In this document: piece by piece, positions 1,003 through 35,486 of the stretch
Layout of the letters: each line of letters starts with the position of its first letter
How positions within the stretch are numbered: the first letter of the stretch is position 1
Virus record (IMG/VR): IMGVR_UViG_2724679238_000015
Span: 1 to 35,486 of that record
From: a virus
Taxonomy: Duplodnaviria; Heunggongvirae; Uroviricota; Caudoviricetes
Length of the DNA: 35,486 nt
Direction: 5' to 3' (one strand)
Program-made: the position numbers and the translations under genes
The notes under the pieces: model-generated
What the model saw: only the letters and a program-made list of their open reading frames with translations
What the model was told of the DNA's origin: nothing
Databases searched by the model: none

Positions 1003-1007
1003 TTTAG

Positions 1008-1355
1008 TTACTTATCACATAAATCAAATGCAGCCTTAGTGACATCTCCCAGATTCTTTTTTAACCCTGGGGCGGCATCATTATCCAGCCAAAATGGATT
1101 ATTGTTATCTAACGGTAACGCACCAAATGTTTTACCTTTTATTCGAGCCAAACCTGTAAGCGCATATAACTTATTATCGTCAAAATTCATCACATAAGGA
1201 TTACCATCTAGACACTGTAACTGAACCTCATCAGTATTAAATGGCCATACCCCATTGAAACTCTCACGTTCAATATTTTTAAAAGGCATTGCGACGGCAG
1301 AAAAAGAAAACATAGATAAAAAAGTAACTAATAGTTGAACCTTTTTTACTTTCAT
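1008..1355 (-). CDS. small secreted protein of unknown function (signal peptide), cargo in the repressor-int operon
   Basis: 115 aa. N-terminal MKVKKVQLLVTFLSMFSFSAVA looks like a Sec signal peptide. GAGGT RBS. Only 5 bp from the int start, so probably co-transcribed. Confidence 0.6.
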   Translation of the reverse strand: MKVKKVQLLVTFLSMFSFSAVAMPFKNIERESFNGVWPFNTDEVQLQCLDGNPYVMNFDDNKLYALTGLARIKGKTFGALPLDNNNPFWLDNDAAPGLKKNLGDVTKAAFDLCDK

Positions 1356-1384
1356 ACCATTACCTCAATTTAGCTCAAGTAAGA

Positions 1385-2035
1385 TTACAAATTAAAAAAC
1401 ATCCTAGAAATGGCACCACCTACCAAACCCCCTACGCAGATAAAGAATATTATTTCTTTTGGATAAAGTCGGATTAATTCTGAAGCACGAAGTCGGACTT
1501 CTGGTAAGGTCGAATTCTCTGTGTTGCTTGATACCGATTGTTGCTCTAACCACGACAATGCAGACTGCAACTGAGAACGAGTAAGATCGTTTAAACGTCC
1601 TGTACCGAAATTGATATGGCAATACCGCAGAAGTTTTTGTCGAAGTCCACAGTCTTCACTGTTACGTAGTAATAAACTTACAAGAGCCTTACAGGCATCA
1701 TGATCTTTACATCGCTCAAGCATTGCATGCAGAAAACTCTCCGCTGTTTTATATTGATTTACTGTCATATCATCAATACCAGCTACACCAATCTCCGCAT
1801 GTACTTTTTGCCAAATAATAAACGCTTCAGTATTGCTAGCTTCTGCAATAGCAGCAACCAAGCTATTTAGCTCCTTACGCTGAGCCTTAAGCAAAGGGCG
1901 ATCGTCATCATCATTATTCGAAGGGATTGCGATATTGACGGTATGAGAACCATCATATCGCCCTATCTGAATATTCTTTTCGTGAAAATCACGCCCAGCA
2001 ACGCGATTGTTTGAACCGTTTGAGTTGACGGCCAT
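1385..2035 (-). CDS. C-terminally membrane-anchored protein of unknown function, cargo in the repressor-int operon
   Basis: 216 aa. GGGAGG RBS 5 nt upstream. Single hydrophobic segment at the extreme C-terminus (IIFFICVGGLVGGAISRMFF). N-terminus carries the motif GSNNRVAGRDFHEKN also present at the C-terminus of the upstream HTH protein. Confidence 0.6.
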   Translation of the reverse strand: MAVNSNGSNNRVAGRDFHEKNIQIGRYDGSHTVNIAIPSNNDDDDRPLLKAQRKELNSLVAAIAEASNTEAFIIWQKVHAEIGVAGIDDMTVNQYKTAESFLHAMLERCKDHDACKALVSLLLRNSEDCGLRQKLLRYCHINFGTGRLNDLTRSQLQSALSWLEQQSVSSNTENSTLPEVRLRASELIRLYPKEIIFFICVGGLVGGAISRMFFNL

Positions 2036-2050
2036 GTCACCTCCCTACTA

Positions 2051-2455
2051 TCACCTACCCTTAGTTTCGTTATAGTCACGCCCAGCGATACGGTTATTAC
2101 CGCCAGAAATATTTAACTCACGTCCTGATGGCTGAGTTTCCTTTTCACTGGCCGCACCTTTTAAAGCCCCGATCACCGCGTTTTTCACATCTAACGAAGC
2201 TGCTCGAAAGCGAGTAATCAACTCCTGCTCATCATCGTTATAAGTTTCAGGTGAGTGAATTCCCAACACAACATACTGAACATCAAGGCCAAAACGAGAC
2301 AGCGCTGCCAAATACGCAGCATCAGGAAAGCTATCTCCTTTCTCATATCTAAGCTGAGTTAGCTTTTTGACTCCACCAATGTCGCTCATAGCAACTTGAC
2401 TAAGTCCCAATCTTTCCCTTTCCTCACGCAACCTCTGACCAATATCATTTTTCAT
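2051..2455 (-). CDS. XRE-family helix-turn-helix repressor, candidate immunity repressor
   Basis: 134 aa. N-terminal QRLREERERLGLSQVAMSDIGGVKKLTQLRYEKG is a typical XRE HTH. Divergent from the early operon across a 75-bp control region, the position of cI in 186-like phages. Confidence 0.7.
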   Translation of the reverse strand: MKNDIGQRLREERERLGLSQVAMSDIGGVKKLTQLRYEKGDSFPDAAYLAALSRFGLDVQYVVLGIHSPETYNDDEQELITRFRAASLDVKNAVIGALKGAASEKETQPSGRELNISGGNNRIAGRDYNETKGR

Positions 2456-2470
2456 ACAAAAACCTTGACA

Positions 2471-2488
2471 GGTATCTTTTTTGATACC
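2471..2488. promoter_or_regulatory. 18-bp palindrome GGTATC-N6-GATACC in the divergent control region; candidate operator next to a TTGACA -35-like hexamer (2465..2470)
   Basis: Perfect 6-bp inverted arms with a TTTTTT spacer, between the repressor start (2455) and the first early gene (2531). Seen directly in the sequence; function inferred. Confidence 0.3.
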
Positions 2489-2530
2489 AAAATGATTTCA
2501 CGAGCTATTAGATGATCACAATATATCACT

Positions 2531-2737
2531 ATGAAACAAGTTCTTCACGATACCAGATCACGCATTCCGCGTAACACCGCCACAGGTCCAAGACTGGCAC
2601 TTCGGCTGTCCCTCGAGGAGCGAGCCGTCATTGATGAAATGGCAGCTAAAGAACAACGCTCATCCTCTAACATGGCGCGCATGATCTTCCTTCGCGGCCT
2701 AGAGCTAACCCAGAAAGAACAAAACAAATCTTCCTGA
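2531..2737 (+). CDS. small ribbon-helix-helix-like DNA-binding protein, first gene of the early operon (Cro/Apl-like role inferred)
   Basis: 68 aa. RLALRLSLEERAVIDEMAAKEQRSSSNMARMIFLRG fits the beta-strand/helix pattern of Arc/CopG/MetJ-type proteins. No clear RBS, so the start is uncertain. Confidence 0.5.
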   Translation: MKQVLHDTRSRIPRNTATGPRLALRLSLEERAVIDEMAAKEQRSSSNMARMIFLRGLELTQKEQNKSS

Positions 2738-2753
2738 TCAGGAGGCTAATGGG

Positions 2754-2957
2754 ATGTCAGGTATAACCATCAATATCAATGTGAATGCCCCCTATGTATC
2801 CCTGCAGAAATATGCAGAGATAACAGGTATCCCTCTTAATACATGCAAAAAGATGTTGGCTGACGGTCGAATTATTATCCGACCCAAACGCGCCAAAATG
2901 GAAAAGCCTGAAGTAAACCTTGTGGCGATGTTAAAAGACGCTTTGGCTAACAGCTAA
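2754..2957 (+). CDS. small HTH protein, candidate excisionase/Cox-like regulator
   Basis: 67 aa. GGAGG RBS 8 nt upstream. YVSLQKYAEITGIPLNTCKKMLADGRI resembles a winged-helix excisionase-type DNA-binding motif. Confidence 0.5.
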   Translation: MSGITININVNAPYVSLQKYAEITGIPLNTCKKMLADGRIIIRPKRAKMEKPEVNLVAMLKDALANS

Positions 2958-2978
2958 AACAATGAACAGAGCATCATC

Positions 2979-3329
2979 ATGAAAAAAAACACTAATATTC
3001 CATACTCCAAATTTCGTAATGGCGTAGAACGCCACGCTAACCGTTTCGCTATCAGTACATCACGTAGCAACACTCGCTACAGCCTGAGCGAAACACACGC
3101 TACACCTGATGGCCATCCCGTAAAACAAATTGGTGAACACACCTGGCTGATTGAGAAAGCTGGAATCGTGGTTCACAGATGCCAACGCAACCCATTTACC
3201 GGAAACCGCATTTTTGCTCTGAGCAACGGCGACAATCAGTTTGGACAGGATTTCACGTTGTACGAAGCTCTGCGCACGGTTGATCGTCTGCTACGCGGAC
3301 AGAATTTCATTAAACAGGCTGATTTATAA
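2979..3329 (+). CDS. hypothetical early protein
   Basis: 116-aa ORF in the early operon; no recognisable motif. Confidence 0.45.
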   Translation: MKKNTNIPYSKFRNGVERHANRFAISTSRSNTRYSLSETHATPDGHPVKQIGEHTWLIEKAGIVVHRCQRNPFTGNRIFALSNGDNQFGQDFTLYEALRTVDRLLRGQNFIKQADL

Positions 3330-3339
3330 CAGGTGCTTT

Positions 3340-3618
3340 ATGACCAAAGACCATGCTCAGGGTGTATTTATCCGCTTTATTGATTTTCGCGGTGAGCTGT
3401 TGTTGCGCGCATCAGCTATTGATGGAGTGGTTCCGGTAGATAAAAGCACGGCCACTTACATTTATCTGAACGGCACACGCCTGACCGTAGAGATTCCATA
3501 TCAACCCGTATGCGAAATTATTAGCGAAGCTGAAAAAGCACGTCAGGTTAATGGCGATAAACCCTATCTCGAAATTATCTGCATGGATTCAGAAGCTGAA
3601 ATTCAGAAGGCAGATTAA
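3340..3618 (+). CDS. hypothetical early protein
   Basis: ORF-track frame 3241..3618; an ATG at 3340 preceded by AGGTG gives a 92-aa product that does not overlap the upstream gene. Confidence 0.45.
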   Translation: MTKDHAQGVFIRFIDFRGELLLRASAIDGVVPVDKSTATYIYLNGTRLTVEIPYQPVCEIISEAEKARQVNGDKPYLEIICMDSEAEIQKAD

Positions 3619-3629
3619 AGGGCGTTGCG

Positions 3630-3872
3630 ATGGATAAAGAATATAAAACTCTCGTCAATAAAGCACTTGAGCGCTTTCATTTTCGCTTAAACGCATCAGG
3701 CGCTCATGCTGAACGCGCAGCCCGAGAGTCATTGACCAGAGCTATCAAGAGTATATACGACACGGCTTTTTACGTTGACGACCCGGACGCGCTCGACGAG
3801 CTTTCCGTACTCGTCTGCGCCGCAGAAAACGGGGACCATATTGAGCCATATAAACTGGGAAATATTGCATGA
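3630..3872 (+). CDS. hypothetical early protein
   Basis: 80-aa ORF with AAAGGG RBS. Confidence 0.5.
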   Translation: MDKEYKTLVNKALERFHFRLNASGAHAERAARESLTRAIKSIYDTAFYVDDPDALDELSVLVCAAENGDHIEPYKLGNIA

Positions 3873-22114: not shown

Positions 22115-24343
22115 ATGAGCACCACAACACGAAAATTTAAAACCGTTATCACCGATACGGGTGCAAAAAAATTAGCACAGGCAGCCGCACCAGATGGCAA
22201 ACCCGTCCGCCTGACACATATGGCCGTGGGTGACGGCGGCGGTACTTTACCCACGCCAGACAGTAAGCAGACCCGTCTCGTGCATGAGGTGTGGCGACAT
22301 ACCGTTAATCGCGTCTTCCTGGACGCAACACATCAGAACCGCATTATTGCGGAGCTGGTTATTCCTCCAGAAACGGGCGGATTCTGGATCCGGGAAATTG
22401 GTGTGTTTGATGAGCACGGCGATTTAATCGCGGTGGGCAATACTGCCGAAAGTTACAAGCCAACCGTTGCCGAAGGGTCCGGGCGTGCGCAAACATTTCG
22501 CACCATCCTGACCGTATCCAGCACGGCCACCGTGGCGCTTACCGTGGATAACACCATGGTGATGGCCACAGTGGATTACGTGGATGACAAACTAAAAGAG
22601 CATGAACAGTCACGACGTCACCCGGATGCCTCGCTGACCGCAAAAGGCTTTACTCAGTTAAGCAGTGCGACCAACAGCACGTCTGAAGCACTGGCCGCAA
22701 CACCGAAAGCGGTAAAGGCTGCATATGACCTTGCTAGCAGGAAATATACCGCACAGGATGCCACCACAGAGCAAAAAGGCCTTGTCCAGCTCAGTAGCGC
22801 CACTAACAGCGTGTCTGAAACGATGGCGGCAACGCCGAAAGCGGTAAAGGCCGCCTATGACCTTGCTAACGGGAAATATACTGCACAGGACGCCACCACA
22901 GCGCGAAAAGGCCTTGTCCAGCTCAGTAGTGCAACCAACAGCCCGTCTGAAACGCTGGCTGCGACGCCAAAAGCTGTTAAGACGGTAATGGATGAAACGA
23001 ACAAGAAAGCGCCGCTGTCGAGTCCGGCACTCACCGGAACGCCAACCGCACCAACTGCGCCAAAGGGTACTAACAATACTCAGATAGCAAACACGGCGTT
23101 CGTTATGGCCGCGATTGCCGCACTTGTAGACTCATCACCTGACGCACTGAATACGCTGAACGAGCTGGCTGCGGCACTGGGCAATGACCCGAACTTTGCG
23201 ACTACTATGACCAACGCGCTTGCGGGCAAGCAGCCGAAAGACGCCACCCTGACGGCGCTGGCCGGGCTTGCTACTGCGGCAGACAGGTTTCCGTATTTTA
23301 CGGGGAATGACACTGCCAGCCTGGCAACTCTGACAAAAGTCGGGCGGGATATTCTGGCTCAAGCGACCGTTTCCGCCGTTATCGAATACCTCGGTTTGCA
23401 GGAAACGGTAAATCAGGCCGCTGGCGCATTGCAGAAAAACCAGAACGGCGCAGATATTCCAAACAAAGATAAATTTACGCAAACAATAGGTGCTTGCCGC
23501 TCTTTTCATAGCTCTATCAGCACAGGAGCAGGGAACTGGACAACGGCACAATTTATCGAATGGCTGGAATCTCAGTGGGCTTTCAATCATCCATACTGGC
23601 TGTGTAAATGCTCATGGTCATACGGCAATAATAAAATTATTACTGACACCGGATGTGGACTTATTCACCTTGCGGGTTGCGTTATTGAAGTTATGGGCAA
23701 TAAAGGCGCCATGACCATTCGTATAACCACACCGAGTACCTCTAGCGGTGGTGGCACCACTAATGCACAATTTATATATATTAACCACGGTTCAGAGTAT
23801 TTACCTGGCTGGCGACGTGACTACAACACGAAAAATCAGCAGGCCGCTTTTGCTTTAGGGATAACAGGAAGCACTGTCGGAAATGATAAAGCTGTTGGCT
23901 GGAACTGGAATAGCGGGGTATATAACGCAAATATTGGTGGCGCATCGACATTAATCCTCCACTTCAATATGAACGCGGGTAGCTGCCCTGCTGTACAGTT
24001 CCGCGTAAATTATAAGAACGGTGGGATTTATTATCGTTCAGCGCGTGATGGTTATGGCTTCGAGGCTGACTGGTCAGAGTTTTACACCACAACCAGAAAA
24101 CCTTCAGCAGCAGATGTTGGGGCATATACTAAAGCGGAATGTAATTCACGATTTATTACAGGTATTCGATTAGGTACAAAATCATCAGCGCAAACATGGA
24201 ATGGTCCTGGCTGGGGCGATAAATCTGGTTACGTTGTTACAGGTTCCGTTAACTCAAACAAAGATGAACTTATTGATACAACACAGGCAAGGCCAGTGCA
24301 ATATTGTATCAATGGCACCTGGTATAATGCGGGAAGTATTTAA
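22115..24343 (+). CDS. H: tail fibre protein (P2 gpH homolog) with phage tail-fibre repeats; C-terminal part lies inside an invertible segment
   Basis: 742 aa. Three tandem copies of the motif QLSSATNS.SE.(L/M)AATPKAVK. The C-terminal region after LGLQETV is the exchangeable receptor-binding part. Confidence 0.85.
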   Translation: MSTTTRKFKTVITDTGAKKLAQAAAPDGKPVRLTHMAVGDGGGTLPTPDSKQTRLVHEVWRHTVNRVFLDATHQNRIIAELVIPPETGGFWIREIGVFDEHGDLIAVGNTAESYKPTVAEGSGRAQTFRTILTVSSTATVALTVDNTMVMATVDYVDDKLKEHEQSRRHPDASLTAKGFTQLSSATNSTSEALAATPKAVKAAYDLASRKYTAQDATTEQKGLVQLSSATNSVSETMAATPKAVKAAYDLANGKYTAQDATTARKGLVQLSSATNSPSETLAATPKAVKTVMDETNKKAPLSSPALTGTPTAPTAPKGTNNTQIANTAFVMAAIAALVDSSPDALNTLNELAAALGNDPNFATTMTNALAGKQPKDATLTALAGLATAADRFPYFTGNDTASLATLTKVGRDILAQATVSAVIEYLGLQETVNQAAGALQKNQNGADIPNKDKFTQTIGACRSFHSSISTGAGNWTTAQFIEWLESQWAFNHPYWLCKCSWSYGNNKIITDTGCGLIHLAGCVIEVMGNKGAMTIRITTPSTSSGGGTTNAQFIYINHGSEYLPGWRRDYNTKNQQAAFALGITGSTVGNDKAVGWNWNSGVYNANIGGASTLILHFNMNAGSCPAVQFRVNYKNGGIYYRSARDGYGFEADWSEFYTTTRKPSAADVGAYTKAECNSRFITGIRLGTKSSAQTWNGPGWGDKSGYVVTGSVNSNKDELIDTTQARPVQYCINGTWYNAGSI
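22643..23000 (+). repeat. tandem 132-bp repeats (about 2.7 copies) inside the tail fibre gene
   Basis: Unit starts at 22643, 22775 and 22907 (AAAGGC...), each encoding a 44-aa repeat ending ...ATPKAVKAAYDLA. Confidence 0.6.
23379..23406. repeat. left crossover site of the invertible segment (gix/hix-like)
   Basis: TTATCGAATACCTCGGTTTGCAGGAAAC; 25 of 28 positions match the reverse complement of 26255..26282. Confidence 0.65.
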
Positions 24344-26950: not shown

Positions 26951-26958
26951 GCATTAAA

Positions 26959-27453
26959 TCAGAACAACCCTTTAACTGAACTGGTCGCGCTGTTAAGGGA
27001 TGCTGTCACCTTATCTTTAAGGCCGGACAGCATATCGCTGAACGATGAGGATTGCAGGCGTTCCCGCAAATCCTCATCACAGCGTTCAAGGGTCAGGGAA
27101 AACTCTATCTTTTTCGCTTTCCCGTAGCGATCCAGTTCAGAGCGGGTCGTGCTCGTTTCGGTCAGAACATACATGCCGTAAATCTGCCCGACGCCATCAA
27201 TCAGAGGCCACGGGCGTCCCGCATACGCCTGCGTGGTCAGCAGCGACAGCGACACTTCGCCGCCTGTAATCTCAGGATAAAGCACGCCAGAAAGAACGAT
27301 GCGATCATCACCTGCACCGATATACTGCCAGCTTGCTGAACGGTTAACGCGCTCGTTTTTCACATGTCGCCAGCTTTTGTTTTGCTGTAACTGCTGATGC
27401 GGCAACGTGCGCAGCTCAAAAACAAACATGCCGTAGATCATCATCATGGCCAT
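26959..27453 (-). CDS. U: tail protein (P2 gpU homolog)
   Basis: 164 aa, directly downstream of the tape measure gene on the minus strand. Confidence 0.8.
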   Translation of the reverse strand: MAMMMIYGMFVFELRTLPHQQLQQNKSWRHVKNERVNRSASWQYIGAGDDRIVLSGVLYPEITGGEVSLSLLTTQAYAGRPWPLIDGVGQIYGMYVLTETSTTRSELDRYGKAKKIEFSLTLERCDEDLRERLQSSSFSDMLSGLKDKVTASLNSATSSVKGLF

Positions 27454-27459
27454 GACTCC

Positions 27460-30297
27460 TCAATCTTTATCGTAAAAACTGCCACGCCCGGCACGGGTAC
27501 GCCGCTCCAGTTCTGCCCTGACCATTTCGCCGACCAGTTTCGCCAGTTCGCGGGGATTCTGCGTAACAACGTTATGCAGATGGACATGAATTTCACCACC
27601 AAATCCGGGGGTCGCAGCCTCCCGGCTGCGGGAAGATGCGGAAACGGGCGCAACTGGCGCACGTGCGGCCTCCACGACCGGACGGGAGCTTGCTGCAACA
27701 ACAGGGGGCAGCGCCGGAGATAACGGAGCCGGGGGCGCGGGAGTGATATTGATTGCAGGAAGAGCCTTGTTGCTCTGCGCAACCTTTCGCTCCTGCCACT
27801 CCCCACGAACAGCAAGCGCACGGGGCAAATTCTTAAAGACAATATCACCGGGGCCGATACGCTTTTTCGTCTCATCAACCAGCTTGCCTGTGTTATCTGC
27901 AATTTTGCTGAGCCTGCGCAGCGTGCCAGTGTTGTTGTCCGTGAGCGGCTTGTTGTCTTTAGGCTTATCGCCTCCGGTCCCTGTTTCCGCAGACTTCGGT
28001 GGATTGATTTTTGCCAGGTCCCCCTGAAGCAAAGCAACCTTGTCCTGAAGAATGGCCGCACGCTGCGCGTCTTCGATTTTCTTTCTCGCCCTTTCCGCTT
28101 CATCTGGAAGGACACCAAGTTTTTCCAGTATCCATGCCAGCGTATCCAGCAGCATTTTTGCAGGCGTCAGGACAAGCTGTAACGCACCGCCAAGAACGTT
28201 GCCGAATACCTCGCCAGCACTGGTGCATTTATCCAGCGTTTCCTTGCTGGATTCCATCGGTGACAGCAGCGATGTAAACCAGTTAAAGACCTGAATCACG
28301 CCATCACGAACCAGTTCGAAAACAGGGCCAAACCGTTCAAAGGTTTCGCGTAACGGGGCCAGCCGCTCCATAATCCCGCTGAACACCCCGGCAAAAAATG
28401 CCCTGATTGGGTCCCAGTATTTCCAGATGAGAACGGCAGCTCCGGCAAGCGCAGCTACGATAAGACCGACCGGGCTGAACAACGCCCCGATAGCGCCTCC
28501 CAGTAAAGAGACGGAACCCTCCACCATTCCCCACAGCGCTGGTAGGACCCTGACAGCATTCATTGATCCGGTCAGGAGGGAAAAACCAAGACGCAGTTTT
28601 GCCAGCGGGCCAGCAAGCACCCCAAGAGCCAGTGACAACGAGCCAACCGTTGCAGTCATTGCCAGCAGCGCACCGCCTGCAATCAGTAGCTGGCGCGTCA
28701 ATGCCGGATGGGCCTGCGCCAGCTCCGTCACCTTTGAGACCACCCGAGTGAGCCACTGCGTGACAGAGCGCAGCGGACCGTCAATCAGATCCGCAATGCG
28801 GATACGCAGCCCCTCCCATGCACTGCCGAGTGATTTCAGGTCGCCATCAAGGTTATTGGCCATAACCTTTGCCGTGCGTTCAGCCTCACCGCGTGCGCCT
28901 TCAAGTTCTTTTCTCAGTTTGGGCAGAGAACCGTCACCTGCCGCATCAACGAGGGCCATAAATGACGTGAAGGCCTCTTCTCCGGCTATGTCCTTAAAGA
29001 ACGATACCCGGTCAACTTCCCCGTATTTGCGGGTGGCTTTATAAAGGTCGGCCAGCACATCCTCCATCGGGCGCATTTTGCCGTTCGCATCAGAGACAGC
29101 CACACCAAGCTCTTTCAGCGCCTCTGCTGCCGCCTTTGGCGGTGATGCCAGACGAGCAAGGCTGGCACGCATTGCTGTCCCGGCATCACTCCCTCTGATA
29201 CCCATATTCGCCAGCACGCCCGCCATCGCTGCGGCCTGCTCCAGCGATATTCCCAGCTTACCCGCCACCGGACCTGCATATTTCATGGTTTCGCCCAGCG
29301 CGCGAAGGTCGGTGTTAGTACGGGTAAACGCCGCAGTAAGTGTGTCGCCGACCCGGTCCATCTGGTCAGCAGAGAGGCCGAACTGCGTCAGGATATTTGA
29401 GCCAATATCAGCCGTCTCGCCAAGGTCCATACCGCCAGCCGTTGCCATGCTCAGCACGCCGGGAAGCGCAGCCTGAATGGCTTCTGGTGTGAAGCCAGCC
29501 ATAGCAAGAAATGCCTGCCCACTGGCGGCATCACTCGCAGTAAACTGCGTTTCAGAGCCGAGCTTTAGCGCCTGCTCACGCAGCGCCTTAAACTGCGGGC
29601 TGTTCTGGTCAATTCGCGTCAGCGCCTGCACACGGGACATCTCTTTCCCGAATCCGATAGCGGGCTGCAAAAAACGCCCGGCAGCATAGCCGCCAGCCGC
29701 TGCCGCACCAGTTGCCAGCGCACCACCTGTTTTCAGTTTTCCCGCAGTTTCCTGCGCGCGTGAATACCGCTCACGCGCCCGCGTTACACGCGCAAGCGCC
29801 TGTCGTTCGCGTTCAAGCTGGTTGTTGTACTGTTCGGTGCGTCTGATGGCCTGCTGGATGGTGTTATCGCTGCCTGTCAGGGAAATACCGTGGCGTTTAA
29901 GCTCTCCGCCAAGCTCCCGCATTTTCTGAATTTCCCGCGTACGCGATTCATTCAGGCGTTCAAGCCGGGTGCTTAACTGCTGCATCAGCCTTTGTTGTTT
30001 TTCGCTGAGCACAGTACCCGTGCGTTGTAACTGATGAAGGGCGTTAAGCTGGCGTCGTGCTTTCACGATGCCAGCATCCGCTTTACTGACAGCATCGCGG
30101 GCGCGCTCAAATGAACGCGCCTGACGCTCGAGATTTTTGATCGCCCCCTGCGTTCGCTGGATGGAGTCACCAAACTGTCCCATCAGGCGGCGGGCGTTTT
30201 CGGCTGGCCGGGTCAGCCTGTCAACAGCACTGAAGGCGACCCGAATGTCAAGAGTCTTCATCGTCTGCATTCCCACTGCGAAGTGCCGCCCGCTCAC
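27460..30297 (-). CDS. T: tail tape measure protein (P2 gpT homolog)
   Basis: 945 aa, Ala/Gly-rich with long helical segments; position between E/E' and U. True start may be an internal Met. Confidence 0.85.
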   Translation of the reverse strand: MSGRHFAVGMQTMKTLDIRVAFSAVDRLTRPAENARRLMGQFGDSIQRTQGAIKNLERQARSFERARDAVSKADAGIVKARRQLNALHQLQRTGTVLSEKQQRLMQQLSTRLERLNESRTREIQKMRELGGELKRHGISLTGSDNTIQQAIRRTEQYNNQLERERQALARVTRARERYSRAQETAGKLKTGGALATGAAAAGGYAAGRFLQPAIGFGKEMSRVQALTRIDQNSPQFKALREQALKLGSETQFTASDAASGQAFLAMAGFTPEAIQAALPGVLSMATAGGMDLGETADIGSNILTQFGLSADQMDRVGDTLTAAFTRTNTDLRALGETMKYAGPVAGKLGISLEQAAAMAGVLANMGIRGSDAGTAMRASLARLASPPKAAAEALKELGVAVSDANGKMRPMEDVLADLYKATRKYGEVDRVSFFKDIAGEEAFTSFMALVDAAGDGSLPKLRKELEGARGEAERTAKVMANNLDGDLKSLGSAWEGLRIRIADLIDGPLRSVTQWLTRVVSKVTELAQAHPALTRQLLIAGGALLAMTATVGSLSLALGVLAGPLAKLRLGFSLLTGSMNAVRVLPALWGMVEGSVSLLGGAIGALFSPVGLIVAALAGAAVLIWKYWDPIRAFFAGVFSGIMERLAPLRETFERFGPVFELVRDGVIQVFNWFTSLLSPMESSKETLDKCTSAGEVFGNVLGGALQLVLTPAKMLLDTLAWILEKLGVLPDEAERARKKIEDAQRAAILQDKVALLQGDLAKINPPKSAETGTGGDKPKDNKPLTDNNTGTLRRLSKIADNTGKLVDETKKRIGPGDIVFKNLPRALAVRGEWQERKVAQSNKALPAINITPAPPAPLSPALPPVVAASSRPVVEAARAPVAPVSASSRSREAATPGFGGEIHVHLHNVVTQNPRELAKLVGEMVRAELERRTRAGRGSFYDKD

Positions 30298-30780
30298 GCC
30301 AGCTAACCACTTCGCCGGGCGTCATCATGAAGATTTCGGCGGGCGACCAGTTAAAAATAACGGCAATATCTGCCACAAAGTCTTCTATGTGCTCAAAGCA
30401 CACAACCGTGATCAGGCTTCCGTCGCCTGTTCGTTCTTCCCGCCAGAGTCCGCACCGCTCAAAAAATTTACGGCAACCACACATAACTGAATAAAGTCAC
30501 GGGATGCCATTTTTTTGATCGTCACTTCATCCAGTCGCGGTGATGTCACGCGTGACAACAGCGTAAACATGGATTCCGCTTTCAGATTCAGCACATCAGA
30601 CAGCGACAGACCACGCAGGGATCCAGCCTGCTCAATAGCCCCGGTGATCTCCACATACGTGATTTTTTCGTCGCCTCGCTCAATTGGCAGGGTAAGTTTT
30701 ACGCCGCGCTCGCTGGTTTCTTTCGCAGTATCAGCAACCACCACAGCGTTTTCAGTATCGGTATTTTTCGTCTCTTTCAT
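30248..30780 (-). CDS. E+E' frameshift product: E extended by a programmed -1 ribosomal frameshift
   Basis: Slippery heptamer UUUUUUG on the mRNA (plus-strand CAAAAAA at 30460..30466) near the end of E; the -1 frame stays open to 30248. Confidence 0.55.
30412..30780 (-). CDS. E: tail assembly chaperone (P2 gpE homolog)
   Basis: 122 aa upstream of T. Confidence 0.75.
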   Translation of the reverse strand: MKETKNTDTENAVVVADTAKETSERGVKLTLPIERGDEKITYVEITGAIEQAGSLRGLSLSDVLNLKAESMFTLLSRVTSPRLDEVTIKKMASRDFIQLCVVAVNFLSGADSGGKNEQATEA

Positions 30781-30834
30781 CAGAAAACTCCTTTCAGTCA
30801 GAGGCGACGCACTGCGCCGCCTGCATATTACTTA

Positions 30835-31347
30835 TCAGCCGAGCCCGAGCGCGGAGCGGATGCGGTCGGGTACAATGTCCTTGCCATCCTTCCGGTAGAT
30901 GTGGTTCACCAGGTCAATTTCCCACACCGGACGATCGTTAATACTCAGCTTGTAGTAGGTGTTTTTGACAGCGTAAGTGTGTGACGTGGCTTCGCCCTGT
31001 TTGGCCTCCCCCATATCAATTTCCGTCACACGCCCGCGCATCTCGATTTCATACAGGTCGCTTTCTGCATCGGTGTAGTATTCACCCGCAAAACGCAGCA
31101 GCGTGCCGTCCATTGTTCCGCCATATTTAAGGAACAGCGCACGAACGGCGCCACCCATGACAAAACTCGCATCAAGCGCGGAATCGTCCAGGCCGAGGTC
31201 GATACTCACCGCTCCCAGCATGCCACCACCACGATAGCTGTCGGTTTTACGCGTCAGTTTAGGCGGGGTGACAGACGTCACCTTACCCACTTCATTTTCA
31301 CCATCCACAAACAGCGTAAAAAAACGAAGATGTTTTGGTACGGCCAT
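30835..31347 (-). CDS. FII: tail tube protein (P2 gpFII homolog)
   Basis: 170 aa immediately downstream of the sheath gene. Confidence 0.85.
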   Translation of the reverse strand: MAVPKHLRFFTLFVDGENEVGKVTSVTPPKLTRKTDSYRGGGMLGAVSIDLGLDDSALDASFVMGGAVRALFLKYGGTMDGTLLRFAGEYYTDAESDLYEIEMRGRVTEIDMGEAKQGEATSHTYAVKNTYYKLSINDRPVWEIDLVNHIYRKDGKDIVPDRIRSALGLG

Positions 31348-32531
31348 TAAGCACCTCCAAGCACTGCAAATGCAGGACCAAAGAACTCATCAGTGAACGC
31401 CTGGTAAAGCTCCATATCTTCCAGCGGAGGAACGGGCGTATATTTATAGCGAATACGCACGCGCCCCTGTCGTAATTCTGTGGTGCTGTTATCCACGATG
31501 TCATACCAGCACGATGCGCCAATCAGTTTCCCGGCAGTAACCAGCGAATCCAGTTTTGCCCTGATGGCACTGATGACGTCCTTCACGTTCGCGGGCGTCA
31601 GTGGACTGTCGATGGTTTCAAACTGCGCTTCCGCAATTGAATCAGCCAGCACCTGTGCGGTTCGGGTATACACCTCAAAGATGTAGGCATTCGTTTCCGG
31701 TGTGCGGTTGCCCCAGAAGCGGAACCCGTTGCGGCGAATGATGGTTGTGATTTCTTTGTTGTTGAGGCTGTTGGCATCGCTGTCAGCAGCCTGCAACGAC
31801 CAGAACACATGCCTGGACATCCCCAGCACATTTTTGACCGGAACGTTGGACAGCGATTTGTGCCAGCCCTGCTCATGGTCAATGTACGCACGAAGGCCGC
31901 ACGCATAGGCTGGCGCGGGGAAAACCTCATTCTCGCCACTTTTCGGGTTGTAAGCGATGAAGTCCGGCCACAGGAGCATCAGCTCGCGTTCGTTGAATTT
32001 TTCACGGTATGCAATGGCTTCAGCCATCGTGTTACAGCCATGACAGGAGGCATACACAAACGCGCGCAGTTTACCTGCAATCACGCACAGGGATTTTGTC
32101 ACCGCCTCCGTGTCCAGCCCCGGCGCGGCCAGAATACGCGGACGGTATCCGATGCTTTCATCCTGCTCTGCAACAAGCAGCGCATACATCCCCGTATAGC
32201 TGCCGTCGGATTCAGAACCACCGATAACCAGTTGATCCTGTGTTTTTCCGTCTTCTTCTTTGTGTTCAGCCACGCGAACGACGATCACCTTTGTGCTCAC
32301 CTGGTCTGCAATGGGTTTCAGCGCACGGTACAGCGTCCCCGTTGTCCCGCATTTTCCCAGCACGTCATTGACGCGGGTCACTAATGCAGGCTTGTTCAGC
32401 GGGAACAGCTTCGCGTCCGCATCGTCCGCCGTTGCCACGATACCGATAACGCTGGAATCAACGTCGTTAATTGCTGTTACCAGGTCGGTACTTTCCGTAA
32501 CGCGGGCGCCATGAAAGCGAGTTTCACTCAT
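31347..32531 (-). CDS. FI: tail sheath protein (P2 gpFI homolog)
   Basis: Start at the Met of MSETRFHGARVTE (AAGGGG RBS), giving about 395 aa. LRAYIDHEQGWHKSLSNV and FRFWGNRT blocks match P2 FI. The ORF-track frame extends upstream to 32666. Confidence 0.85.
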   Translation of the reverse strand: MSETRFHGARVTESTDLVTAINDVDSSVIGIVATADDADAKLFPLNKPALVTRVNDVLGKCGTTGTLYRALKPIADQVSTKVIVVRVAEHKEEDGKTQDQLVIGGSESDGSYTGMYALLVAEQDESIGYRPRILAAPGLDTEAVTKSLCVIAGKLRAFVYASCHGCNTMAEAIAYREKFNERELMLLWPDFIAYNPKSGENEVFPAPAYACGLRAYIDHEQGWHKSLSNVPVKNVLGMSRHVFWSLQAADSDANSLNNKEITTIIRRNGFRFWGNRTPETNAYIFEVYTRTAQVLADSIAEAQFETIDSPLTPANVKDVISAIRAKLDSLVTAGKLIGASCWYDIVDNSTTELRQGRVRIRYKYTPVPPLEDMELYQAFTDEFFGPAFAVLGGA

Positions 32532-32686
32532 AGTTAGCCCCTTGTATCCGTTAAATGATTCGGCAACAATCATCACCCACCACGCGCGTAATCTCATCCC
32601 TGCGCCGTTCTTGCCGCCCGGCGACAACAAAAAGCAGTAACCCCGCCCGCACACACATGCGACCATGCTGCACAGGGAGGGAGCCG

Positions 32687-33787
32687 ATGATTGACACCAC
32701 CATGCAACTGTTCAACCAGAGTACTGACCCCGTGAAGATGCCTGATTTTGATATTCTCGCGGAGGGGAAAACGCTGTCCGGTGTGGCAGAACGCCTGATG
32801 AGCCTGTCACTGACCGACAACCGGGGATTTGAAGCAGACCAGCTCACCATCACGCTGGATGATGCTGATGGTCAGTTGCAGTTGCCGCCACGGGGCGCTC
32901 GCCTGACGGTTCTCATTGGCTGGAAAGGCGAACCGCTGACAGAAAAAGGCACTTACATTGTTGATGAAATTGCTCATGAAGGACCGCCCGACAGACTGAC
33001 CATTTCAGCCAGAAGCGCAGATTTTCGGGATGAATTTAACGTCAAGCGCGAAGTATCCTGGCATGATGTAACCGTTGAACGCGTGGTGTCTGCAATTGCT
33101 CACCGATACGGCCTGAAACCGCAAATCAGCGAAATGCTGATGGATATTGAAATCGACCACGCTGACCAGACCGAAGAAAGCGACATGTCCTTCCTTACAC
33201 GCATGGCGGAAATGCTGGGCGCAATCACCACGGTAAAAAGCGGTAATCTGTTATTCATCATGCCAGGTGGTGGCGTGAACGCGCAGGGAAAACCATTGCC
33301 ATCGTTTGCCATCACACGCAGCAGCGGCGATCGCCATCAGTTTCGCATTGCTGACCGCGAGGCGTATACAGGTGTACGCGCCTACTGGCTTGATCTTAAT
33401 TACGGGAAAAAGAAAAAAGTCAGCGTGAAACGCCGCAAACCGAAAAAGGAGAAAAGCAGCAGCCGGGAAGGCGACTATATGGCAGGCGCGGAAGGCAACG
33501 TGTTTGTGTTACGCAAGACTTATCAGAACGAGCAGGCAGCAAGACGCGCAGCGGCGGCAAAGTGGCAGCAGCTACAACGCGGAGCCGCATCATTCTCCAT
33601 CACGCTGGCACGTGGTCGCGCTGAACTCTACCCCGAAATGCATGGCACGGTGGCAGGCTTTAAAAGCGACATCGACAATCAGGACTGGATTATTGCAAAA
33701 GTTGAGCATTCTATTGATAACAGTGGTTTTACCACACAGCTTGAGCTTGAAGCAAAAATCCCGGAATGGATAGCAGAAACAGAGTGA
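32687..33787 (+). CDS. D: tail protein D (P2 gpD homolog)
   Basis: ATG at 32687 with GGGAGGG RBS; about 366 aa. Transcribed divergently from the FI-U block. Confidence 0.8.
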   Translation: MIDTTMQLFNQSTDPVKMPDFDILAEGKTLSGVAERLMSLSLTDNRGFEADQLTITLDDADGQLQLPPRGARLTVLIGWKGEPLTEKGTYIVDEIAHEGPPDRLTISARSADFRDEFNVKREVSWHDVTVERVVSAIAHRYGLKPQISEMLMDIEIDHADQTEESDMSFLTRMAEMLGAITTVKSGNLLFIMPGGGVNAQGKPLPSFAITRSSGDRHQFRIADREAYTGVRAYWLDLNYGKKKKVSVKRRKPKKEKSSSREGDYMAGAEGNVFVLRKTYQNEQAARRAAAAKWQQLQRGAASFSITLARGRAELYPEMHGTVAGFKSDIDNQDWIIAKVEHSIDNSGFTTQLELEAKIPEWIAETE

Positions 33788-33828
33788 GCAACTTAGAATA
33801 GCGGCAGCACTACGTTAAGGGGGTTGCC

Positions 33829-34089
33829 ATGTTCCGTTGTCCGCTTTGTGGCGCATCTGCCCGTATCCGCACCAGTCGTTCGGAAAATGATTCAGATACC
33901 GTACGGAAAAAATATTACCAGTGTAACAACCTGGAATGCGGCGTATGCTTCTCAACACTGGAGGCTTTCCATAAATTCACATCGAAACACGCCCCCGGCG
34001 TTCACTCTTCAGAGGGCATCCCGTGGAATGAGCTACCAGCTTCACACAGGGGAAACAACCAGATGAGTTTGCCCTTACCTCAGAATTAA
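33829..34089 (+). CDS. ogr: late gene transcription activator, zinc-finger Ogr/Delta family
   Basis: MFRCPLCGASARIRTSR...YYQCNNLECGVCFSTLEAF matches P2 Ogr (MFHCPLCQHAAHARTSR...YHQCQNVNCSATF) with the four-Cys zinc finger. Confidence 0.85.
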   Translation: MFRCPLCGASARIRTSRSENDSDTVRKKYYQCNNLECGVCFSTLEAFHKFTSKHAPGVHSSEGIPWNELPASHRGNNQMSLPLPQN

Positions 34090-34149
34090 CAGGCTGAATT
34101 GCCGGAGTAACAAAAAAGCGATAAATTACGCGCGGGTGCCTTTCGGCTG

Positions 34150-34362
34150 ATGGCTGGAGGGAATACCCGAAGGCCAGATGTGGAAAGGCCCCGGAAAACA
34201 TTTCTGTTTAACCGAGGCCCTGACCATCTAACCTTAGCAAGTGATAGGTTAGCGCCTCCCCAAAAAAGGAGCAAGCGCTATGTCGCAAAAATCGCTTATG
34301 GCCATCACGTTCTGCGTGACGGTAATCCTCATCATCTGGATGCTGCACGGTTCGCTGTGTGA
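34150..34362 (+). CDS. mok-like overlapping reading frame of the hok locus (tentative)
   Basis: 70-aa ORF in another frame overlapping the hok start, as mok does in hok/sok loci. Called by position only. Confidence 0.3.
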   Translation: MAGGNTRRPDVERPRKTFLFNRGPDHLTLASDRLAPPQKRSKRYVAKIAYGHHVLRDGNPHHLDAARFAV

Positions 34363-34420
34363 AATACGGATGAGCTTCTGGGGAGCGGAGTTTGCGGCGT
34401 TCTTACAGTGTAAGCAGTAA
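34280..34420 (+). CDS. hok: Hok/Gef-family small membrane toxin (type I toxin-antitoxin)
   Basis: 46 aa: MSQKSLMAITFCVTVILIIWMLHGSLCEIRMSFWGAEFAAFLQCKQ. N-terminal TM followed by the SLCEIR...E.AAF signature of the Hok/Gef family. Followed by a GC-rich fold-back hairpin. Confidence 0.65.
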   Translation: MSQKSLMAITFCVTVILIIWMLHGSLCEIRMSFWGAEFAAFLQCKQ

Positions 34421-34508
34421 GGAAACCGCGACGGGGGAGCAATCCCCCGTCAATCGGTTGCTAAGGCTGGCCGAAGTGGCACCCTATCCCATGGACACAA
34501 ACAAGAAA

Positions 34509-34540
34509 ACCCGCAGCGTAAAAACTGCGGGTTTTCTTTT
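34509..34540. terminator. bidirectional rho-independent terminator
   Basis: ACCCGCAG / CTGCGGGT stem flanked by AAGAAAA upstream and TTTTCTTTT downstream. Lies between the convergent hok locus and the minus-strand gene at 34612. Confidence 0.55.
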
Positions 34541-34611
34541 GGAGCTCTCACTTAGCTAAGGTACCGTTAACAACACACATAATGCTCGCAAAACAAACCA
34601 GTTAAAAGTGA

Positions 34612-34893
34612 TTACTCAGCATTCTCCTGCTTCCATTGCCGGATCATTTCATCCGTAACATCACTCTCATAACATACCACGTCATACCCTCCAGTACGGC
34701 TATATGCACTGCGTCTACCACATCTACTACCATTCCTTGCATGATTATAAGGACACGCACAATTGCCTGGATACGATTCAATGGATTCTTTAATTATTTC
34801 TTTCTTGATCTGAGCATCAGACTTTCCTGTTGCTGCATACCCACTAAAAGATACCAAACAAAAACAGATTGCCATTAATAAACCACATCGCAT
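34612..34893 (-). CDS. small secreted cysteine-containing protein of unknown function
   Basis: ORF-track frame extends to 35007; the internal Met at 34893 gives a signal peptide (MRCGLLMAICFCLVSFSGYA) and an ~73-aa mature part with four Cys. Confidence 0.45.
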   Translation of the reverse strand: MRCGLLMAICFCLVSFSGYAATGKSDAQIKKEIIKESIESYPGNCACPYNHARNGSRCGRRSAYSRTGGYDVVCYESDVTDEMIRQWKQENAE

Positions 34894-35140
34894 ACCGATA
34901 CACTCTATTACTAACCAATCATAACCCACATCATAAAATCGAGATGTGGAGTACAACACCTTTAACAAGAAGGTGTCATAACGATAATATGCCGTGCAAT
35001 TCATCAAAAAAAAGATCTATATCAAAGAGATAGAGCTCTTATCAGTGCTGCAGACATCGGCATTCGAGGCAGCAGAAAAACAGTAAATCTGACGAATTTG
35101 CCTTTTCTCAGGATGTTATCAGATTAAAAAAGACAGATTA

Positions 35141-35330
35141 GCGCAGGTACCTTTTGGTGGATGGCAGGAGGAAAAATGAAGTCGAGTGGAAAAATCCCAG
35201 AAAAATTTTTGTTTAACCGAGGTCCTAGTTCACTATGCGAAATACGGAGGAGCTGCAGGAGAATTCGGCTTCATCCTTAGAGTTTAAACAGCACGTGCAC
35301 TACTATTGTTTCTGCATATCGCCACACCAT
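35141..35330 (+). pseudogene. truncated hok-locus remnant: leader plus 3' end of hok, lacking the hok start and TM region
   Basis: 35150..35225 aligns to the leader at 34150..34225 (shared TGTTTAACCGAGG.CCT); the following sequence aligns to the hok 3' end (GAAATACGGA.GAGCT). About 140 bp with the start codon and TM is missing. Confidence 0.4.
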
Positions 35331-35364
35331 CGCCACTCCACCGCCATTGCACAAAATACAAATA

Positions 35365-35390
35365 CAAAAAAACCACCCGAAGGTGGTTTC
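35365..35390 (-). terminator. rho-independent terminator downstream of the tRNA gene
   Basis: ACCACC / GGTGGT stem with CGAA loop; on the minus strand it is followed by a T7 run, about 45 nt beyond the tRNA 3' end. Confidence 0.6.
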
Positions 35391-35432
35391 ACGACACTGC
35401 TTATTGCTTTGATTTTATTCTTATCTTCCCCA

Positions 35433-35486
35433 TGGTACCCGGAGCGGGACTTGAACCCGCACAGCGCGAACGCCGAGGGATTTTAA
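35433..35486 (-). tRNA. tRNA-Leu, 3' part only (truncated by the window edge); anticodon probably UAA
   Basis: Reverse complement reads ...TTAAAATCCCTCGGCGTTCGCGCTGTGCGGGTTCAAGTCCCGCTCCGGGTACCA: long variable arm, T-loop GGTTCAAGTCC, acceptor 3' strand plus CCA. Matches my recollection of enterobacterial leuZ. Confidence 0.75.

Follow-up and report, generated by a model that had tools for sequence, protein, structure and literature searches.

A hok-type cassette, a small secreted-protein gene and a hok relic between ogr and the attachment site of a leuZ prophage of Escherichia coli

The stretch of DNA analyzed here, in the following called the window (35,486 nucleotides), is a P88-like prophage (Xuanwuvirus, P2-like) of Escherichia coli integrated in the tRNA gene leuZ, in its 3′ half. 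At its right end the region of interest begins after ogr (33829..34089, plus strand), the late-gene activator of P2-like phages, which matches Pfam Ogr_Delta with 53.4 bits and is annotated as ogr/Delta-like in RefSeq relatives. This is the last conserved phage gene upstream of the hok cassette, and it ends 45 nt before the putative start of the hok mRNA. The other border is the attR copy of the att identity block (35364..35486, minus strand), which comprises 3′ETS-leuZ (35366..35432) and the 3′ half of leuZ (35433..35486) and which we defined by comparison with the empty site of K-12, attL of strain 510016 and attP of the viral contig L021. A tRNA scan of the window did not report a complete tRNA because the window holds the 3′ half of leuZ only. 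Between ogr and the att block lie three phage-borne items, namely a hok/sok-type cassette, a gene coding for a secreted four-cysteine protein of small size and a hok relic, and we regard this reading as a whole, including the type of the cassette and the nature of the relic, as highly probable. The overall arrangement of hok, four-Cys gene and second copy at the prophage end had been described in an earlier note on this DNA, and it stands.

The intact hok gene (34280..34420, plus strand) codes for a protein of 46 amino acids and forms, together with the ribosome-binding site AAGGAG (34266..34271), a unit from 34266 to 34420. The earlier note had assigned this reading frame to the hok/gef family of toxins, and profile searches place it there: Pfam PF01848 (HOK_GEF) matches residues 7-44 with 30.3 bits (cut-off 22), and PHROG 251 ("MokW-like host killing") is matched with an E value of 3e-23. 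The NCBIfam models for HokA and Hok match below their cut-offs, the best being HokA with 35 bits versus a cut-off of 89. The translation has an N-terminal hydrophobic segment, LMAITFCVTVILIIWML, followed by the motif SLCEIR, and ends in QCKQ with the C-terminal cysteine. This layout of hydrophobic segment, SLCEIR and cysteine is kept in seven of nine homologues, those with intact frames; in the homologues Stx2_6804 and EH2011 hok is frameshifted. In the literature we found no experimental test of the 46-aa Hok type, and a search for P88 or P2-like phages together with hok gave no paper on this cassette. A hok-type toxin/antisense-RNA cassette at a prophage end is as such an ordinary, database-annotated element of an already known kind.

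The hok mRNA unit extends from the leader to an intrinsic terminator (about 34134..34541, plus strand) and folds with a minimum free energy of -186.4 kcal/mol (z -8.4). Its probable promoter (34099..34127, plus strand) consists of the -35 element TTGCCG (34099..34104), a spacer of 17 nt and the -10 element TAAATT (34122..34127), and transcription would start near G34134. The -10 element (TAAATT or TAGATT) is conserved in the nine homologues; with agreement at 8 of 12 consensus positions the promoter is under the threshold of a simple scan. A generic sigma-70 scan of 34050..35486 reported neither this promoter nor that of the antisense gene discussed below, both of which we infer from conservation. 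The sole hit of the scan (34962..34990, plus strand) is unsupported. The leader, which had been recognized as conserved before, matches Rfam RF01794 (sok/hok leader) from 34134 to 34268 on the plus strand with an E value of 2.9e-8, although its 45 bits are below the gathering score of 59.

The 3′ fold-back proposed for this RNA was likewise recovered in the structure predictions. The tac-like element at the 5′ end (34134..34148, plus strand) is predicted to pair with an fbi-like element (34469..34484), and the 3′ UTR (34429..34484, plus strand) contains in addition a hairpin (34429..34452) and a sequence (34453..34466) that is predicted to pair with the target of the Sok-like RNA (34232..34245). 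In the full-length fold obtained in silico the GGAG of the ribosome-binding site (34268..34271) is masked by 34256..34259. For the RNA shortened at its 3′ end, folding predicts a free ribosome-binding site and a loop that contains 34229..34242. The structure is conserved among the nine homologues: 88.8% of the structure cells are paired (slid controls, about 41%), and the number of pairs changed on both sides is 15 (controls, 1-6), in a comparison that is biased by the derivation of the tested structure from the window's own sequence. Helices 5 and 13 contain three and two pairs changed on both sides. The fold-back helix (helix 1) is paired to 94.8% across the homologues, mostly in invariant columns, and it shows no covariation because its columns are nearly invariant. 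In the homologue alignment the non-coding parts of the cassette are more conserved than the coding sequence. A bidirectional intrinsic terminator (34503..34541, both strands) ends the hok mRNA as well as the mRNA of the small gene on the opposite strand; matches to Rfam Thr_leader, Spy1786666, BSnc120 and Rev39 at 34484..34562 are sub-threshold look-alikes of this terminator.

Within the leader a Sok-like antisense gene is probably encoded in cis (34182..34274, minus strand), as suggested by a conserved -10 element and a hairpin. Its candidate promoter consists of the -35 element TTGCTC (34274..34269), a spacer of 17 nt and the -10 element TAACCT (34251..34246), and the RNA would start near 34239, form a hairpin from 34222 to 34190 and end near 34182, which gives a length of about 58 nt. 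The -10 element agrees with the consensus at only three of six positions; it is invariant in the nine homologues, down to 75% identity. The antisense hairpin folds in 9/9 homologues despite sequence changes. In size and position the putative RNA is similar to the annotated sokC of K-12, with its length of 59 nt and its start site 49 nt before the ATG of hokC. For the sok-like antisense promoter, a search for which was recommended in the earlier note, the leader offers TTGCTC-17-TAACCT with its invariant -10 element as a candidate, which the generic scan does not report.

A mok-like frame overlapping hok had also been described. This frame is indeed open in the window, where it runs from 34150 to 34362 on the plus strand (70 aa) and overlaps the start of hok in another frame; counted from the GUG at 34180 it comprises 60 codons. 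It is, however, not conserved in close relatives: in P88, the DNA of which is 95% identical, and in the Stx-phage homologues the frame is closed or frameshifted, and there is no alternative start. In this part of the leader only the putative start of a short ORF is conserved, GAAGG-N5-AUGUG (34169..34182, plus strand). It is invariant in the nine-way alignment and could serve as ribosome-binding site with a start at AUG (34178) or GUG (34180), and the position of the stop drifts between relatives. We can only infer a function of this leader ORF because its length and end vary between relatives. Its start sits at the 3′ end of the footprint of the Sok-like RNA.

The hok/sok (parB) system of plasmid R1 is the paradigm of type I toxin–antitoxin systems, and a conserved mok frame is essential in this paradigm. 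Like R1 hok/sok, the cassette codes for a small membrane toxin of the Hok/Gef family and has a long leader, a fold-back of the tac/fbi style predicted between the 5′ and 3′ ends, a masked ribosome-binding site with predicted activation by 3′ trimming, and a putative antisense gene in the leader, the promoter of which overlaps the region of the hok ribosome-binding site. It differs in the carrier, a P2-like phage instead of a plasmid (only 34 of 72,556 plasmids have the 46-aa type), in the size of the toxin (46 aa versus 52), in the unconserved mok frame and in the sub-threshold Rfam score.

Following the mechanism established for R1, the weak promoter would give rise to a long, stable and tightly folded hok mRNA. 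In its full length this mRNA would be inert because its ends, the ribosome-binding site and the antisense target are all sequestered by folding, the ends by pairing with each other. Slow trimming of the 3′ end would then lead to refolding, by which the ribosome-binding site is freed and the target is exposed in a loop, and the short, unstable Sok-like RNA (about 34239 to 34182, minus strand) would bind and silence the refolded mRNA as long as it is made. If the cassette were no longer transcribed, be it through induction, loss of the element or shut-off of the host by another phage, the antisense RNA would be the first to decay. Once it is gone the 46-aa Hok would be made, would insert into the inner membrane and would kill or lyse the cell. 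As a conserved mok frame is absent from close relatives, the coupling step of this mechanism may differ. Prophage addiction is a possible role of the cassette.

For one phage-borne system of this kind experimental data are available. [quoted passage not shown] 2021, PMC8621323). The present cassette is likewise a phage-borne hok/sok, and by PHROG name both proteins belong to PHROG 251. HokW is, however, a different protein of 51 aa, similar to HokC/HokD and starting with MKQQKAM as deduced from primer YO-357 (PMC8621323). The 46-aa type has a locus of its own beside lom in 933W and VT2-Sakai, where the DNA is 82% identical. Directly after ogr the same cassette is found as gp52 of P88 and its equivalents in Chuche, P884B11, 500465-2 and PhiR44_2, annotated as "MokW-like host killing / hok/gef family protein". 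The DNA identity of these gp52-type cassettes is 92-95%, and it is 98% for the clipped prophage record 520873; the ogr–hok cassette is present at 92-98% identity in the records of P88, Chuche, P884B11, 500465-2, PhiR44_2 and Shae_phiSM.

It could be argued that the intact cassette is silent baggage like several hok loci of K-12, that is, preserved, unexpressed and of no effect. The K-12 genes hokA-E belong to the same gene family, in which decay of hok by IS insertion or deletion is common (compare the relic described below), and hokA and hokC of K-12 adjoin the insertion sequences IS150 and IS186A. The frameshifts in the Stx-phage homologues mentioned above imply that the cassette is dispensable, and in O157:H7 it has been lost by an IS30 event with the neighbouring genes retained. 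The K-12 hok genes occupy fixed positions in the chromosome and have annotated mok frames (mokC being in frame with hokC), unlike the hok of the leuZ prophage, which is mobile cargo with an unconserved mok frame. Against the reading as baggage speaks that the hok coding sequence is 98-100% identical among the leuZ-prophage lineages, with about 7% difference between their leaders, that two unrelated phage families have conserved the RNA structure and the antisense -10 element, and that the related phage cassette is active (PMC8621323). We consider it unlikely that the cassette is mere baggage and continue to regard it as a hok/sok-type cassette carried by the phage as cargo.

The second item, situated between the two hok copies on the other strand, is a small gene (34612..34893, minus strand) for a protein of 93 aa which matches PHROG 27544 with an E value of 2e-58. 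The description as a small secreted four-Cys protein holds: there is an N-terminal hydrophobic, signal-like segment, and none of the cysteines C45, C47, C58 and C74 varies among 87 homologues (221 homologues were found). Profile searches gave no Pfam or NCBIfam family for this protein, and its AF2 model (pLDDT 76) has no fold match in the PDB. Matches to Sclerostin and to ragweed allergen are sub-threshold and reflect the cysteine content only. The gene is cargo unrelated to hok.

The third item is the hok relic (35126..35300, plus strand). Pairwise alignment confirms that a second copy of promoter and leader part (35126..35226, about 80% identical to 34112..34221) is joined at position 35226/35227 to the 3′-terminal third of hok and the beginning of the 3′ UTR (35227..35300, about 70% identical to 34349..34426). 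Overall 167 of 219 columns (76%) are identical between the intact copy and the relic. The 127 bp corresponding to 34222..34348, with the putative Sok promoter, the ribosome-binding site, the start codon and the membrane helix, are missing. In a database of 2.3 Gb the leader of the relic matches P88-like hok leaders with 75-76% identity at E values of 7e-8 to 9e-7, and therefore the similarity is not due to chance. The term duplicate used in the earlier note is, however, not appropriate. The identity of the copies is no more than about 76%, and none of 5,426 E. coli genomes yielded an intact sequence closer to the relic, which is therefore a remnant of some age that has diverged, rather than the product of a recent duplication. 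All full-length matches in these genomes share the same deletion, and the other matches are intact hok leaders with 75-79% identity.

The junction is identical in all lineages seen, and a single ancestral 127-bp deletion has disabled an older hok cassette, the remains of which travel with the leuZ-specific int/att module. Between lineages the relic diverges by 4-14%, which is equal to or above the divergence of the flanks, and its identity is 86-96% compared with 96-97% for the neighbouring small gene. In SCU-124 the relic has suffered an additional 7-bp deletion. Its sequence marks the relic as a pseudogene in neutral decay, derived from a hok cassette that was different and older. A 12-mer (tagttcactatg) that occurs both at the relic junction and at the end of the P88 record was considered as a common scar or att-related site, but when the P88 tail was aligned with the relic and the intact locus, only noise resulted, and the 12-mer is therefore taken as a chance match.

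We also considered whether the truncated copy could be functional, as a decoy or sponge for the Sok-like RNA, as the source of a 39-aa peptide or as an integrase arm-binding part of attP. In line with such a function the relic has been kept with the same junction in all leuZ-type lineages seen, which are 4-14% apart in this stretch, and it lies about 64-240 bp to the left of the att block (35364) and about 190-360 bp from the crossover, which is presumably in the anticodon loop, where arm sites could fall. However, the relic has no counterpart of 34222..34239, the 18 nt with which the Sok-like RNA would pair through its single-stranded 5′ tail; the antisense promoter is absent, and the relic's own promoter-like -10 element is degraded to CAGATT. 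The chimeric 39-aa frame is frameshifted in H10407 and no longer has a start codon in O157 and SCU-124; in H10407 the relic is less conserved than the adjoining small gene (86-88% versus 97%). We regard a function of the truncated copy as improbable and hold to the reading as a pseudogene, which has been retained because of its position between a selected gene and attP.

The boundaries of the prophage bear on the origin of all three items. The 123-bp leuZ/3′ETS block is repeated at attL in strain 510016. At the empty site of K-12 the yecA side is joined straight to the equivalent of position 35364, and only the sequence from 35364 rightwards is shared with K-12 and most E. coli genomes. An attP pattern search furthermore identified the viral contig L021, in which int, attP, relic, small gene, hok and ogr follow each other in an unbroken series; L021 is a database contig and represents either an excised phage or an assembly. 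From the sharing with the empty site, the repeat at attL and the contiguity in L021 it follows that both hok copies are phage-borne. They are inside the att boundaries and on the same side of the att core, between attL and attR. The leuZ prophage type is present in about 600 of 5,426 complete E. coli genomes, among them the O157:H7 and ETEC H10407 genomes examined. In a search with the segment 34545..35361, 586 of the 5,333 matching genomes cover at least 80% of the query, and the listed genomes without the segment each matched merely its final 34-39 nt.

A different history would see in the small gene and the relic (34545..35363) the stump left by an earlier leuZ prophage, beside which the present phage integrated. 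This segment is found in no record of the phage collection searched, and the sole record with the same integrase, "Escherichia phage 520873", is not informative on the neighbour of attP because it is not a virion genome but a clipped prophage which starts within yecA and ends inside hok. However, no internal copy of the att block is present between the hok cassette and the relic, the genome counts for the segment (586-615) and for the integrase type (599) are similar, the segment is seen only beside the leuZ prophage or its IS-truncated remains, and L021 ties it to int via an intact attP. We regard such a stump as very improbable and keep to one phage carrying all three items. The earlier note offered, as an alternative to phage-borne cargo, a chromosomal hok locus that the insertion interrupted; the prophage would have inserted in or beside this locus, with the truncated copy left on the far side. 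The layout alone, with an intact and a truncated copy near the prophage end, speaks for it, but it is refuted because neither copy is present at leuZ in prophage-free genomes (no hok between yecA and leuZ in K-12 and the others listed), both copies are on one side of the att core within attL and attR, their 76% identity and different flanks show that they are not two halves of one gene, and complete phage genomes carry the intact cassette. The other alternative of that note, cargo at the prophage end, is the one that survives.

In P88-like phages the stretch from the hok cassette to attP serves as a slot for variable cargo. The homology downstream of the cassette stops near 34488 in some phages and at the terminator, near 34540, in others, and the cassette is followed by gp53 in P88, by Com and a DNA methyltransferase in Chuche, and by the four-Cys gene and the relic in the leuZ type. 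The 46-aa Hok subfamily is carried by P88-like phages and, beside lom, by Stx phages. Tentatively, and with more doubt than conviction, we suggest that this subfamily might work without a classical mok and that the relic might be the scar of repeated hok replacement in the ogr–attP slot. If this were true, hok translation would be controlled by the short upstream ORF or by RNA refolding and cleavage alone, and such control without mok would be a variant of the R1 mechanism.

For the R1 hok/sok system exclusion of phages has been reported. Should the cassette of the leuZ prophage be active, it could make the prophage more stable, bring lysis forward as hokW-sokW does, or exclude other phages. 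An active cassette would be a useful but unsurprising addition to the knowledge of phage-borne toxin–antitoxin systems. The value of the analysis is mainly in the annotation, since it places a toxin–antitoxin cassette, a conserved small secreted protein and a hok pseudogene in a common leuZ prophage.

The right end of the prophage carries ogr (33829..34089, plus strand, Pfam Ogr_Delta), a 46-aa ORF with a long leader and trailer (34280..34420, plus strand), a strong bidirectional intrinsic terminator (34503..34541), a small gene on the minus strand (34612..34893), a second hok-like stretch (35126..35300) and, up to the final base of the window, the 3′ external transcribed spacer (3′ETS) and the 3′ half of a tRNA-Leu gene. 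Because only half of this gene is present, ARAGORN reported no complete tRNA in the window. Profile searches place the 46-aa ORF in the Hok/Gef family, as the earlier note had proposed: it scores 30.3 bits against Pfam PF01848 (cut-off 22) and matches PHROG 251 with an E value of 3e-23. The best NCBIfam model is HokA, with a score under the cut-off, and the Rfam sok/hok-leader model hits 34134..34268 (E 2.9e-8), its 45 bits falling short of the gathering score (59).

The earlier note had left two origins for this locus, phage-borne cargo or a chromosomal hok locus interrupted by the insertion. In RefSeq E. coli genomes the region adjoins glyW-cysT-leuZ and is the terminus of a P2-like prophage. 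The suggested comparison with an empty site was carried out with K-12, where yecA lies immediately beside leuZ and the leuZ 3′ETS; the window and the K-12 chromosome agree only from 35364 rightwards. The query 34545..35400 matched 5,333 genomes, at least 80% of it being covered in only 586, and in a spread of the genomes lacking the segment each matches just the final 34-39 nt. The integrase at the opposite end (1..1002) is present in 599 genomes. At attL of strain 510016 a second copy of the 123-bp att block (leuZ 3′ half and 3′ETS, ending in the anticodon loop) adjoins yecA and is followed by phage sequence and int. Since the block is repeated at attL, the prophage reaches from there to 35486, and all sequence to the left of 35364 is internal to it.

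Viral contigs were also screened for an arrangement possible only in attP, namely the relic-side flank, the block and the int-side flank in that order. One contig matched (L021). It aligns to 3690..1 and 35486..26954 of the window, the sole separator being a 107-nt int-side arm, and carries ogr, hok, the terminator, the small gene, the truncated hok copy, the leuZ block and the int arm in this order. On the strength of this contiguity and of the att boundaries, the small gene and the two hok copies belong to the phage, so that the cargo alternative stands and the interrupted chromosomal locus is refuted. A tandem-stump model is refuted as well, since the internal att copy which it requires was not found and L021 is contiguous through attP.

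The attP itself holds a copy of the sRNA sponge 3′ETS-leuZ (35366..35432), together with the leuZ 3′ half; copies are located at 35364..35486 in the window, 1274..1396 in L006 and 3809..3931 in L021. Lysogens therefore express a 3′ETS supplied by the phage, and an orphan copy is left beside yecA at attL. Position 35428 (nucleotide 5 of the 3′ETS) is C in the window copy and T in K-12, the strain 510016 attL and the viral contig.

The ogr and hok locus is 92-95% identical in P88, Chuche, P884B11, 500465-2, PhiR44_2 and Citrobacter phage Shae_phiSM, and 98% identical in the prophage record 520873; in P88-like relatives the hok gene is annotated as "MokW-like host killing / hok/gef family protein". 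The record in question (NC_049344.1, "Escherichia phage 520873") is a clipped prophage and no phage genome, starting inside yecA, with a split integrase annotation, and ending mid-hok. Homology to the P88-like phages ends at about 34488, just past the fold-back element, or at about 34540, past the terminator. The cassette (about 34113..34485) is also found, 75-83% identical, after lom in about 185 records of Stx-converting and related phages (933W, VT2-Sakai), and is rare on plasmids (34 of 72,556 records). As a mobile module the intact cassette is already known, and its shared boundaries in two unrelated phage groups point to horizontal movement as a discrete unit. Its boundaries (34113..34485; L008-L013) are the same after ogr in the P2-like Xuanwuvirus and after lom in the Stx-converting Sepvirinae. 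The cassette of the 933W/VT2-Sakai-type Stx phages is distinct from the published hokW.

The cassette is followed by gp53 in P88, by Com and a DNA methyltransferase in Chuche, by other ORFs in P884B11, and by the four-Cys gene and the relic in the leuZ type. As this content differs among the P88-like phages, the stretch from hok to attP is a cargo slot of variable content, linked to the int/att module; the slots compared were 34541..35363 in the window, 3743..4369 in L002, 3243..4600 in L023 and the part from 3192 onwards in L022. At the int end two minus-strand genes, one for a DUF2511 protein (1008..1355) and one for a 216-aa hypothetical or membrane protein (1385..2035), lie between int and a repressor-like helix-turn-helix gene, and 1008..2035 looks like a second cargo slot. 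Elsewhere, the structural gene region contains a 132-nt tandem direct repeat (22642..22905, two copies, 81% identity).

The truncated second hok copy described in the earlier note is indeed present. Pairwise alignment matches 34112..34221 to 35126..35226 (about 80% identity) and 34349..34426 to 35227..35300 (about 70%), whereas the 127 bp at 34222..34348, with the putative antisense promoter, the ribosome-binding site, the start codon and the membrane helix, are missing from the second copy. Overall 167 of 219 columns are identical, and no intact closer relative was found in 5,426 E. coli genomes, which speaks against the recent duplication implied by the word duplicate. The leader of the relic matches the hok leaders of P88-like phages with 75-76% identity (E 7e-8 to 9e-7). 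All leuZ-type lineages, among them window/510016, O157:H7, SCU-124 and H10407 (86-96% identical across the relic stretch), share the identical junction; a single deletion therefore predates their divergence. The chimeric 39-aa frame which it created contains a frameshift in H10407; in O157 and SCU-124 its ATG is gone, and in SCU-124 there is a 7-bp deletion besides. In H10407 the relic stretch is 86-88% identical as against 97% for the adjacent small gene. Given the broken frames, the low conservation and the lack of an intact closer relative, the second copy is what remains of another, older hok cassette and is decaying neutrally; it survives because it is located between a retained gene and attP. 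It may be left over from the ogr-hok-att arrangement of a donor phage, dating from the acquisition of the leuZ int/att module, or it may be the scar of a cassette replacement. In the O157:H7 leuZ prophage (SS TX 754-1, L004 3470..5016) gene D lacks its 3′ part, and ogr and the intact hok cassette are gone, an IS30 standing in their place; the small gene and the relic are retained. This event probably explains much of the difference between the 586 genomes with the relic segment and the 323 with the whole ogr-to-leuZ stretch.

The retained gene encodes a 93-aa protein. Its position between the hok copies on the other strand and its four cysteines had been recognized correctly, and a hydrophobic N-terminal segment agrees with the proposed secretion. 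C45, C47, C58 and C74 are invariant across 87 homologues, the conserved motif being YPGNC-C-PY...CG-RSAYSR-GGY...CY. Altogether 221 homologues were found, named ones including Salmonella, Pseudomonas, Geomesophilobacter and an alphaproteobacterium. Searches of Pfam and NCBIfam gave no family, and the AlphaFold model (pLDDT 76) had no PDB match; the protein is a putative secreted member of the uncharacterised family PHROG 27544.

In R1 hok the mRNA ends pair (tac/fbi), and activation by 3′ trimming is established. The predicted fold of the cassette mRNA (34134..34541; -186.4 kcal/mol, z -8.4) has the same arrangement, with the 5′ end (34134..34148) paired with 34469..34484; in addition 34453..34466 pairs with 34232..34245, and CUCC (34256..34259) masks the hok ribosome-binding site GGAG (34268..34271). 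When the 3′ part is removed, the 5′ end is predicted to re-pair with 34183..34192, GGAG is unmasked and a hairpin loop holds 34229..34242, mirroring the trimming model. The intact mRNA would thus be inert, and 3′ trimming would refold it, free the ribosome-binding site and expose 34229..34242 in a loop. In an alignment of nine homologues (to 75% identity) leader and trailer are better conserved than the coding region. The structure was derived from the window, itself a member of the alignment, and its fold-back helix is nearly invariant; it is 88.8% paired in the nine homologues versus about 41% with partners slid by 1-3 columns, and 15 pairs are changed on both sides versus 1-6 in the slid controls.

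Conservation suggests a sok-like minus-strand promoter with -35 TTGCTC (34274..34269), a 17-nt spacer and -10 TAACCT (34251..34246), the -10 being invariant in all nine homologues; a generic promoter scan reported neither this nor the inferred hok promoter. A hairpin about 17 nt past the inferred start folds in nine of nine homologues despite sequence changes. Transcription from the minus-strand promoter would yield an antisense RNA of about 58 nt whose 5′ end lies about 41 nt ahead of the hok ATG, comparable to the annotated K-12 sokC (59 nt, 49 nt upstream). Candidate roles of the cassette are stabilisation of the prophage, help in lysis as for hokW-sokW, and exclusion of other phages, which has been reported for R1 hok/sok. 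Among phage loci tested by experiment the nearest is hokW-sokW of Sp5, which encodes a different, 51-aa Hok; its toxicity is neutralised by the antisense RNA, and after induction the locus hastens phage release (PMC8621323).

As a description the earlier observation is confirmed, the sole caveat being the overlapping mok-like frame. The locus is a known, database-annotated type of element on a common prophage, plus a pseudogene. The 70-aa frame (34150..34362) is open in the window, but it is closed by a 1-bp indel in P88 (DNA 95% identical) and contains stops in the Stx-phage homologues, where none of the frames offers another start codon ahead of hok. In the nine-homologue alignment only GAAGG-N5-AUGUG (34169..34182) is invariant, and ORFs beginning there stop at different positions in the relatives. 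A classical mok therefore appears not to be conserved in the 46-aa subfamily. This apparent lack of a conserved mok is the only mildly novel thread of the locus, and might be the one point at which the 46-aa Hok subfamily departs from the hok/sok paradigm.
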